Below, piece after piece: positions 7,307-7,799 of a stretch of 14,986 nucleotides of DNA (its first letter is position 1; each line of letters begins with the position of its first letter). Source of the stretch: a virus. Lineage: Duplodnaviria > Heunggongvirae > Uroviricota > Caudoviricetes. The DNA is taken from the IMG/VR virus record IMGVR_UViG_2534681835_000019; one strand, 5' to 3'. Under the pieces are notes generated by a model. The model had not been told where the DNA came from, did no database searches, and saw nothing but the letters and a program-made list of their open reading frames with translations. Both the position numbers and the translations under genes were made by a program.

Positions 7307-7579
7307 TTACAGCATCATGACCGATTCGGGTTGAGGTTCAGTCGCATCGGCGACCGGTGATTCAGGCTGAACTTCACCGCTCTCTGCGGTGGTATCTCCC
7401 GCTTCAGTCGGTGGCTCTGCCTGTACACCAAGCAGCTCATCCAGAATGGCATCAACCTCTGCATCAAGACGCGCTTCCAGGTTATGGCGAAGTTTTTGTT
7501 TCAGTGCGCTCCGGACTTCTTCAGAGCGCAGGACTTCCTTCACTGCTTCAGCAGTGACCAGGGATGTAATTTCTGACAT
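7307..7579 (-). CDS. Hypothetical small acidic protein (~90 aa)
   Basis: ATG at 7579; [90 protein letters not shown]: helical N-terminal half and acidic, Pro/Glu-rich C-terminus. The ORF-track upstream extension to 7753 is rejected. Confidence 0.5.
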
Positions 7580-7619
7580 GGGATTTTCTCGTCGAAAGAT
7601 GTGATTAAGAAAGTTGCCG

Positions 7620-7799
7620 CTAAATGAGCGGCTCTTCGGGTTTGCTTCCGGCTGACTGACTGGCGCTGATTTTCTCAGCGGCCCTTTTGTCAATCTGTCT
7701 GCGCCAGAAGTCACGCATGGCCCTGTACCCACCCGAAAGGAGATACAGCACACAGACCACCGTACAGAAGTACAGCATTAACTGGTTCAGAAATGTCAT
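7620..7799 (-). CDS. Hypothetical 59-aa membrane protein (N-terminal TM helix)
   Basis: ATG 7799 with GGAAAG upstream; MTFLNQLMLYFCTVVCVLYLLSGGYRAMRDFWRRQIDKRAAEKISASQSAGSKPEEPLI, stop TAG. Under 60 aa, so absent from the ORF track; translated by hand. Confidence 0.4.
   Translation of the reverse strand: MTFLNQLMLYFCTVVCVLYLLSGGYRAMRDFWRRQIDKRAAEKISASQSAGSKPEEPLI

Follow-up and report, generated by a model that had tools for sequence, protein, structure and literature searches.

DUF1378 and DUF826 genes between nanS-p and the pinholin gene of a Shiga toxin phage-type prophage: mobile late-operon cargo with a possible role in lysis

Here we report sequence evidence that two small genes lying between the sialate O-acetylesterase gene nanS-p and the holin gene of a lambdoid prophage are real protein-coding genes under purifying selection, and we present a survey of genomic contexts in which they appear, with good support, as a mobile, dispensable two-gene cargo of the late operon. 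The genes encode a DUF1378 protein of 59 amino acids (aa) and a DUF826 protein of 90 aa, and they occupy positions 7307-7799 of the stretch of DNA analyzed (hereafter the window), which comprises 14,986 nt from IMG/VR record IMGVR_UViG_2534681835_000019 (Caudoviricetes). Both are already known and annotated as sequences, and neither is novel; the analysis adds evidence of selection, the recognition of a mobile pair in several contexts, a conserved terminator that is not peculiar to the pair, and three testable hypotheses on function. Among these we tentatively favour a role of the pair in modulating lysis by a pinholin and an endolysin of the signal-anchor-release (SAR) type.

The genes of the pair are ordinary as sequences, very widespread, and placed in a medically relevant position, with the toxin/esterase cargo on one side and, on the other, the lysis genes that control the timing of Shiga toxin (Stx) release. 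In a collection of 50,697 phage records, the genes are carried by about 310, which are nearly all Stx-converting phages, and the pair is found in nearly every Stx-converting phage of that collection. It is likewise carried by 1004 of 5426 complete E. coli genomes (18%), at a median of 2 and a maximum of 7 copies.

Protein families, selection and distribution

The two genes of the pair are as follows.

7620..7799, minus strand: DUF1378 gene, 59 aa (Pfam PF07125, E 2e-39, 134 bits; phrog_494)
7307..7579, minus strand: DUF826 gene, 90 aa (Pfam PF05696, E 9.6e-30, 103 bits; phrog_311)

An earlier, sequence-only reading of this DNA had described a membrane protein of 59 aa and an acidic protein of 90 aa in a combination that it could not assign. 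While the description of the two proteins held, as detailed below, an assignment can be made at the family level. The 59-aa protein matches the DUF1378 profile over its full length (profile positions 1-59 of 59, 134 bits against a gathering score of 25), the 90-aa protein matches the DUF826 profile over positions 1-70 of 75 (103 bits against a gathering score of 25), the two also match PHROGs 494 and 311, respectively, and identical genes bear the RefSeq names 'DUF1378 family protein' and 'DUF826 domain-containing protein'. No function is assigned to either family in Pfam or PHROGs. The equivalents in Sakai Sp5 are ECs_1210 and ECs_1211; the 493-bp pair locus is 100% identical to prophages of E. 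coli E2863 and O111:H8 TW05614, and positions 7231-7935 (705 bp) are 99.9% identical to Stx2a phage WGPS8. The DUF826 family is tiny, since in a set of 1.8 billion representative proteins it forms only 49 clusters at 50% identity, and neither family was found, with the patterns used, in the GTDB species-representative genomes (one per species). Neither protein matched a solved structure at E ≤ 0.1, a PADLOC defence model at E ≤ 1, or a holin family in Pfam or PHROGs, the last of which is matched by the neighbouring gene.

The searchable literature yielded no experiment on DUF1378 or DUF826, only one passing mention that such open reading frames (ORFs) exist between nanS-p and S (PMC10462455) and one line of a microarray table, in which ECs1211 was seen in uninduced Sakai cultures and dropped on entry into stationary phase, unlike stx2 (PMC2241611). 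The latter is weak evidence of expression, because multi-copy phage ORFs are hard to attribute, a caveat given in that study itself. A further mention of 'DUF1378' (PMC7213743) was discarded as a typographical error for DUF1738.

Both genes bear the marks of purifying selection. In samples of 78 and 71 distinct coding sequences, the median pairwise ratio of non-synonymous to synonymous substitution rates (dN/dS) was 0.19-0.21 for DUF1378, and 0.13 and 0.42 for the core and the tail of DUF826, respectively; the holin gave 0.06 in the same analysis. Homologues at 36-50% identity retain length, motifs and pairing across differing genomic contexts. A check of conservation and synteny had been proposed in the sequence-only reading, which would have given the ORFs up had they not been conserved at the protein level; with dN/dS values of 0.13-0.21, both of them are.

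The DUF1378 protein contains one hydrophobic segment (residues 3-21, Kyte-Doolittle 1.98), in agreement with its earlier description as a membrane protein. Its N-terminus is uncharged and residues 26-59 are basic (isoelectric point (pI) 10.3), from which, by the positive-inside rule, an N-out/C-in topology is predicted. An AlphaFold2 model consists of a single helix spanning residues 2-48, and a LYF..LYL.(S/A)GGY motif, located at the end of the membrane helix, is invariant. DUF1378 is thus predicted to be a single-pass inner-membrane protein with a basic helical cytoplasmic tail and almost no periplasmic part.

Charge and structure prediction also bore out the view of the DUF826 protein as acidic and partly helical with a disordered tail. 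Its pI is 4.2 and its net charge -13, and AlphaFold2 places helices at residues 10-17 and 20-50 (predicted local distance difference test scores of ~80-90), followed by a disordered tail at residues 51-90. The predicted protein is soluble and cytoplasmic, with a helical core of ~50 aa and a Pro/Glu-rich, disordered acidic tail. The core is almost invariant in E. coli copies, where variation is confined to the tail, and a C-terminal MM[LM] is conserved. Length forms of 81, 90, 96 and 101 aa occur, and other enterobacterial phages have forms that lack the tail and measure 56-60 aa.

The conserved start of DUF826 is the ATG of M-[SPT]-E-[IL], which is preceded by a strong Shine-Dalgarno sequence in diverged loci. 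In most variants the frame remains open for 60-70 codons 5' of this ATG, overlapping the 3' two-thirds of DUF1378, and in the window it forms a 148-aa ORF (7307-7753, minus strand). The long DUF826 forms of 128-141 aa annotated in some RefSeq records are caused by this upstream frame staying open by chance. A programmed frameshift giving a tethered DUF1378-DUF826 fusion was considered and is unlikely, because the gene-to-gene frame offset varies among diverged loci (1, 1, 1, 1, 0 and 2). Natural DUF1378-DUF826 or DUF826-holin fusions (P0008, P0091, P0100 and P0256; phrog_8301) were dismissed as Rosetta-stone evidence, the sequences being judged products of frameshift or deletion.

Genomic contexts and flanking RNA elements

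Lambdoid contexts were surveyed in 160 IMG/VR loci obtained with two different DUF826 queries, gene order being judged wherever the contig extends far enough. The order nanS-p, DUF1378, DUF826, S21 pinholin, lysozyme and Rz was invariant, and the same order was also found in loci whose DUF826 is only 38-52% identical (38-42% in the most diverged), giving ~170 lambdoid loci in total. Outside of this setting the neighbours of the pair change. E. coli Mu-like prophages carry a tail fibre gene, a chaperone gene, an esterase gene with SASA and DUF6645 domains, DUF1378, DUF826, com and mom in this order, and P0249, the DUF1378 variant of these prophages, has entries in 861 index blocks; in the one Mu-like prophage searched, a gp22-like endolysin gene and a gp25-like DUF2730 gene lie ~24 kb from the pair. 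Other Mu-like phages (L201-203) have the tail fibre and chaperone genes followed by a tail-less 56-aa DUF826, DUF1378 and dam, that is, the pair in swapped order, with esterase and nearby holin absent, and the same backbone also occurs with DUF1378 alone (L204-207). In 24 IMG/VR contigs (L177-L200) and in BUCT708/709, genes for an S21-type pinholin, a SAR-type endolysin and Rz/Rz1 are followed by that of a 50-aa DUF1378 homologue, the fifth gene of the cassette, whose ATG overlaps the Rz stop codon (ATGA) and which is accompanied by neither DUF826 nor esterase. BUCT708/709 were deposited as Stenotrophomonas phages, and the endolysin of their cassette (L163 2721-4153) is ~75% identical to that of the window. 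A solo short DUF826 gene lies near a different lysis cassette, and prophage PP2 of enteropathogenic E. coli (EPEC) E2348/69 has the esterase, the small RNA (sRNA) PasA and a class II holin, with the pair absent.

Neither the esterase nor the holin is therefore an obligatory neighbour of the pair. The joint occurrence of DUF1378 and DUF826 in both relative orders and beside differing neighbours makes it most likely that the two function together. Identical DUF1378 alleles were also seen in combination with different DUF826 tail types (81, 90 and 96 aa), and the reverse, which shows that recombination has had break-points within the two-gene module.

The pair runs in the direction of the late genes in every context found, and it lies between two hairpins. 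Inspection and a consensus scan, the latter crude, revealed no sigma-70 promoter of its own. Taken with the absence of the pair from PP2 and its accessory sites in Mu-like prophages, these features fit the earlier suggestion of late-expressed cargo, and the pair is probably expressed late. We infer that a Q-antiterminated transcript from pR' carries it along with nanS-p and the lysis genes, reading through both the upstream hairpin and the downstream terminator. A moron in the sense of Juhala et al. (2000) is inserted between genes that are adjacent in relatives, as is the case here, given the esterase-sRNA-holin arrangement of PP2 without the pair; of the promoter and terminator that a moron would own, the terminator is conserved and the promoter is the one that the scan and inspection did not reveal.

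Two RNA elements adjoin the pair in the window.

7266..7297, minus strand: intrinsic-terminator-like hairpin (GGCCAUCAGU/GCUGCUGGCC) followed by U5, with the start codon of the holin 36 nt downstream
7859..7936, plus strand: Esr41-like antisense sRNA candidate between nanS-p and DUF1378

The first of these had been described previously as a terminator in the holin leader that closes the pair. It folds as described and its U5 run is present; a simple terminator scan overlooked it because of one internal mismatch. Across 29 distinct intergenic variants, three stem families were found and the T-run is kept in most. In an alignment of 14 variants, 95% of the cells are paired and 3 of the 10 pairs show compensatory changes, a covariation score reached by 0 of 500 shuffles, and pairing falls to 13-39% when the register is slid by 1-2 columns. 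With a G+C-rich stem-loop, a U-run and a conserved structure, the element has the features by which an intrinsic terminator is predicted. A very similar hairpin (GGCCGTCAGT...ACTGGCGGC followed by T6) precedes the holin gene in PP2, where the pair is lacking, which indicates that the hairpin belongs to the holin leader or module boundary and not to the pair. The closing terminator is thus sound as anatomy, but not as a pair-specific feature. It would be read through in the Q-antiterminated transcript, and likely keeps Q-independent transcripts from the holin. The sRNA AsxR was ruled out as its owner: AsxR is located upstream of nanS-p, at 282 bp 3' of stx2B, and Rfam returned no hit. A scan also flagged a terminator-like hairpin over the DUF1378 stop codon (GCCGCTCATTTAGCGGC; 7616-7632, minus strand), which is not conserved in other variants. 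A second stem (CUUCCG/CGGGAG; 7238-7254, minus strand) is predicted in the holin leader directly 5' of the holin start codon, with an overlap with the probable Shine-Dalgarno region of this dual-start holin; its 3' arm is conserved among variants.

The sRNA candidate aligns to the Rfam model of Esr41 (RF02676) over the full model length, yet at 29.6 bits (E 0.002) it falls below the gathering score of 102, and we call it only 'Esr41-like'. Its folding z-score is -5.5, and it ends in a candidate terminator with a 9-bp stem (CCGCCAGCG/CGCTGGCGG followed by T7). A putative promoter comprises a -35 box (TTGACA, 7818-7823), located 19 nt upstream of the DUF1378 start codon, and a -10 box (TAAAAA, 7842-7847). 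The hairpin and the TTGACA are retained in diverged loci and in the Mu-like module, where a comparable element follows the esterase stop codon (L164 4856-4990). PasA is antisense and lies between the esterase gene and the holin operon (PMC8550237 table S6; 10.64898/2026.05.13.724894); the candidate resembles PasA of E2348/69 in position and orientation but differs from it in sequence. PasA was also considered as a 3'-UTR (untranslated region) sRNA of DUF826 and rejected, being antisense and adjoining the esterase gene.

The window represents the late region of a Stx-phage-type lambdoid prophage. The pair locus and the late and lysis genes all lie on its minus strand, and stx genes are absent from it. 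The remaining features, in minus-strand order, are as follows.

13773-14486, minus strand: AraC-type regulator, first in order, with three tRNAs
10871-13287, plus strand: complete IS66-family element (tnpA/tnpB/tnpC)
10352-10783, minus strand: TerB-domain gene
10011-10183, minus strand: STnc100 sRNA (Rfam RF02076, 104.7 bits), just 5' of nanS-p
7936..9873, minus strand: nanS-p-type sialate O-acetylesterase (DUF1737 + SASA + DUF6645, Pfam), immediately upstream of the pair
7015..7230, minus strand: S21-type class II holin (pinholin), 71 aa (Pfam PF04971, E 8.5e-33), immediately downstream of the pair
6495-7014, minus strand: apparently split inserted gene, ORFs of 50 and 140 aa matching consecutive parts of phrog_1085 (296 positions)
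5919..6452, minus strand: endolysin with an N-terminal SAR-type segment (MNTKIKYGLSAAVLALIAAGA...; Pfam Phage_lysozyme), presumed partner of the pinholin
5154..5645, minus strand: Rz-type spanin gene (Pfam Phage_lysis, E 1.5e-46)
5216-5401, minus strand: Rz1 lipoprotein ORF embedded in Rz (LVVSAC lipobox)
4377-4691, minus strand: PerC-family (Pch-like) transcriptional activator gene (Pfam, E 5e-44), downstream of the lysis cassette
Terminase genes: last in order, after the PerC/Pch-like gene

The TerB gene and the IS66-family element sit between the tRNAs and nanS-p, which is the stx site of Stx phages. The STnc100 family is related to the sRNA PasD according to a 2026 preprint. The endolysin was assigned to the SAR type by inspection and by analogy with R of phage 21. 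The two ORFs at 6495-7014 look like one split or frameshifted inserted gene, and the holin-endolysin interval is a variable insertion site, because the spacing between the endolysin gene and the end of the holin match differs among related loci (~5 nt to ~1.3 kb).

Lysis modulation and its alternatives

The explanation that we tentatively favour, with low confidence, is that the two proteins may together modulate pinholin/SAR-endolysin lysis from the inner membrane's cytoplasmic face, without being indispensable to it. In this scheme DUF1378 would serve as a membrane tether and DUF826 as an anionic effector, which may engage basic cytoplasmic segments (the DUF1378 tail, the S21 pinholin's C-terminus or the N-terminal MNTKIK of the SAR endolysin), and this engagement would shift the time at which the pinholin triggers or the release of the endolysin. 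A role in lysis timing had been allowed for by the sequence-only reading on the grounds of gene position. It is rendered plausible by the unbroken adjacency of the pair, always just 5', to an S21-type pinholin gene in lambdoid loci, and by the overlap of a DUF1378 homologue with Rz; the distance of ~24 kb in Mu-like prophages and the lack of the pair in PP2 speak against it. The lysis reading draws further on the endolysins, which have a SAR-type N-terminal segment in every DUF1378-bearing phage type examined, including the gp22-like endolysin of the Mu-like type, and on a parallel with Mu gp25, an N-out/C-in tethered, anionic cytoplasmic protein whose effect needs the SAR endolysin to have basic residues in its cytoplasmic N-terminus (PMC9239132).

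Several observations weigh against lysis modulation. In E. coli Mu-like prophages the lysis genes lie ~24 kb from the pair, whose location is the phage's right end (in the order esterase, pair, com, mom), and a DUF2730 releasin homologue is already encoded by these prophages. Esterase and class II holin of the same kind occur in PP2 of E2348/69 without the pair, and the pinholin of phage 21 by itself releases a SAR endolysin (PMC9239132), which makes the pair unnecessary for lysis. The pair and the holin gene are separated by a conserved terminator, and solo DUF1378 and solo DUF826 genes occur. No holin family of Pfam is matched by either protein, sequence and profile comparison shows no similarity to gp25 (hhalign probabilities of 0.2% with DUF1378 and 0.1% with DUF826), and the searchable literature holds no experiment on either family. 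The more far-reaching proposal, that the pair is an unrecognised two-piece lysis regulator, analogous to a releasin or antiholin, which sets the timing of lysis and of toxin and NanS-p release in nearly all Stx phages, we consider unlikely.

The main rival to a lysis modulator is a generic moron or accessory cargo with a membrane function unrelated to lysis, be it superinfection exclusion, a block of DNA entry like that of HK97 gp15, or another host interaction; we regard it as a somewhat unlikely explanation, but as the foremost of those competing with lysis modulation. The pair occupies classic moron sites, namely the Q-S region of lambdoid phages (PMC4104026), the position after Mu-like tail-fibre/chaperone genes and that after the lysis cassette, and it combines a patchy distribution, solo genes and flanking hairpins with multiple copies per genome and presence in 18% of complete E. 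coli genomes. Detection of ECs1211 in uninduced Sakai (PMC2241611) would also suit such cargo, although this is weak in view of the multi-copy attribution. On the other hand, the crude scan and inspection revealed no promoter of its own, PADLOC defence families and YebO/gp15-like Pfam families (E ≤ 0.1) gave no match, and the genes follow the late-gene direction in every context, with an overlap with Rz in one of them.

Less probable still is that the two proteins are accessory factors of the NanS-p esterase, acting in its membrane tethering, release or regulation, so that esterase, DUF1378 and DUF826 would form one functional unit. This would account for the SASA + DUF6645 esterase lying directly 5' of the pair in two unrelated backbones, the lambdoid and the E. 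coli Mu-like, with the intervening antisense-sRNA-like hairpin also kept, and for the persistence of the arrangement while the pair diverged to ~50% identity. It does not account for the pair without esterase (L201-203), DUF1378 alone (L204-207) or in a lysis cassette, or the esterase without the pair (PP2; PasA arrangement, 10.64898/2026.05.13.724894). Moreover, the esterase C-terminus is near-identical between the two backbones, and the trio may therefore have moved as one recombination block instead of being held together by function. Lastly, the proteins are very small, and an sRNA candidate and RNA hairpins adjoin the ORFs, as might be expected of chance ORFs, or of remnants over a region that functions as RNA (a leader or sRNA). 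Such non-functional ORFs are very improbable in view of dN/dS values of 0.13-0.21 over many variants, start codons that are conserved with a strong Shine-Dalgarno sequence in diverged loci, and homologues at 36-50% identity that keep length, motifs and pairing in other contexts.

The survey of contexts thus narrows the options to three directly testable hypotheses, and the two proteins are best studied together. If the pair does tune lysis timing, toxin yield and phage burst in enterohaemorrhagic E. coli would be affected, and lysis regulators of a new kind would have come to light; otherwise the pair is a late-gene cargo that is nonetheless widespread.

Likeness to known lysis and exclusion systems

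The closest parallel to a lysis modulator is the releasin gp25 of phage Mu, with which DUF1378, as predicted, shares an N-terminal membrane helix, an N-out/C-in topology and virtually no periplasmic part. Together, DUF1378 and DUF826 would provide a tether and an anionic cytoplasmic helical domain, and both systems are linked to phages whose endolysins have a SAR-type N-terminus. The two differ in that the anionic domain is here a separate protein, DUF826 (pI 4.2), and the tail of DUF1378 is itself basic (pI 10.3). They differ also in gene position, the pair of the window being upstream of the holin gene, and a position like that of the releasin gene being found only for the solo DUF1378 of BUCT709-type phages. 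Homology to gp25 (DUF2730, PF10805) was rejected on the grounds of no Pfam match and of the hhalign probabilities given above (0.2% and 0.1%), and a releasin is not needed in the phage of the window, since it has a pinholin.

HK97 gp15, of the YebO type, is said to have been described by Cumby et al. in 2012 as a superinfection-exclusion moron. DUF1378 is like it in being a small phage protein whose one membrane helix is N-terminal and whose coding sequence is an insertion absent from related phages. Whereas gp15 is expressed from the prophage, no promoter was detected for the pair, and no YebO/gp15-like Pfam family was matched at E ≤ 0.1.

T4 RIII and P1 LydB are cytoplasmic antiholins, both small and soluble. 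DUF826, although it also occurs far from any holin gene, is likewise predicted to be small, soluble and cytoplasmic, is encoded next to the holin gene in the window, and by analogy could bind the cytoplasmic tail of the holin.

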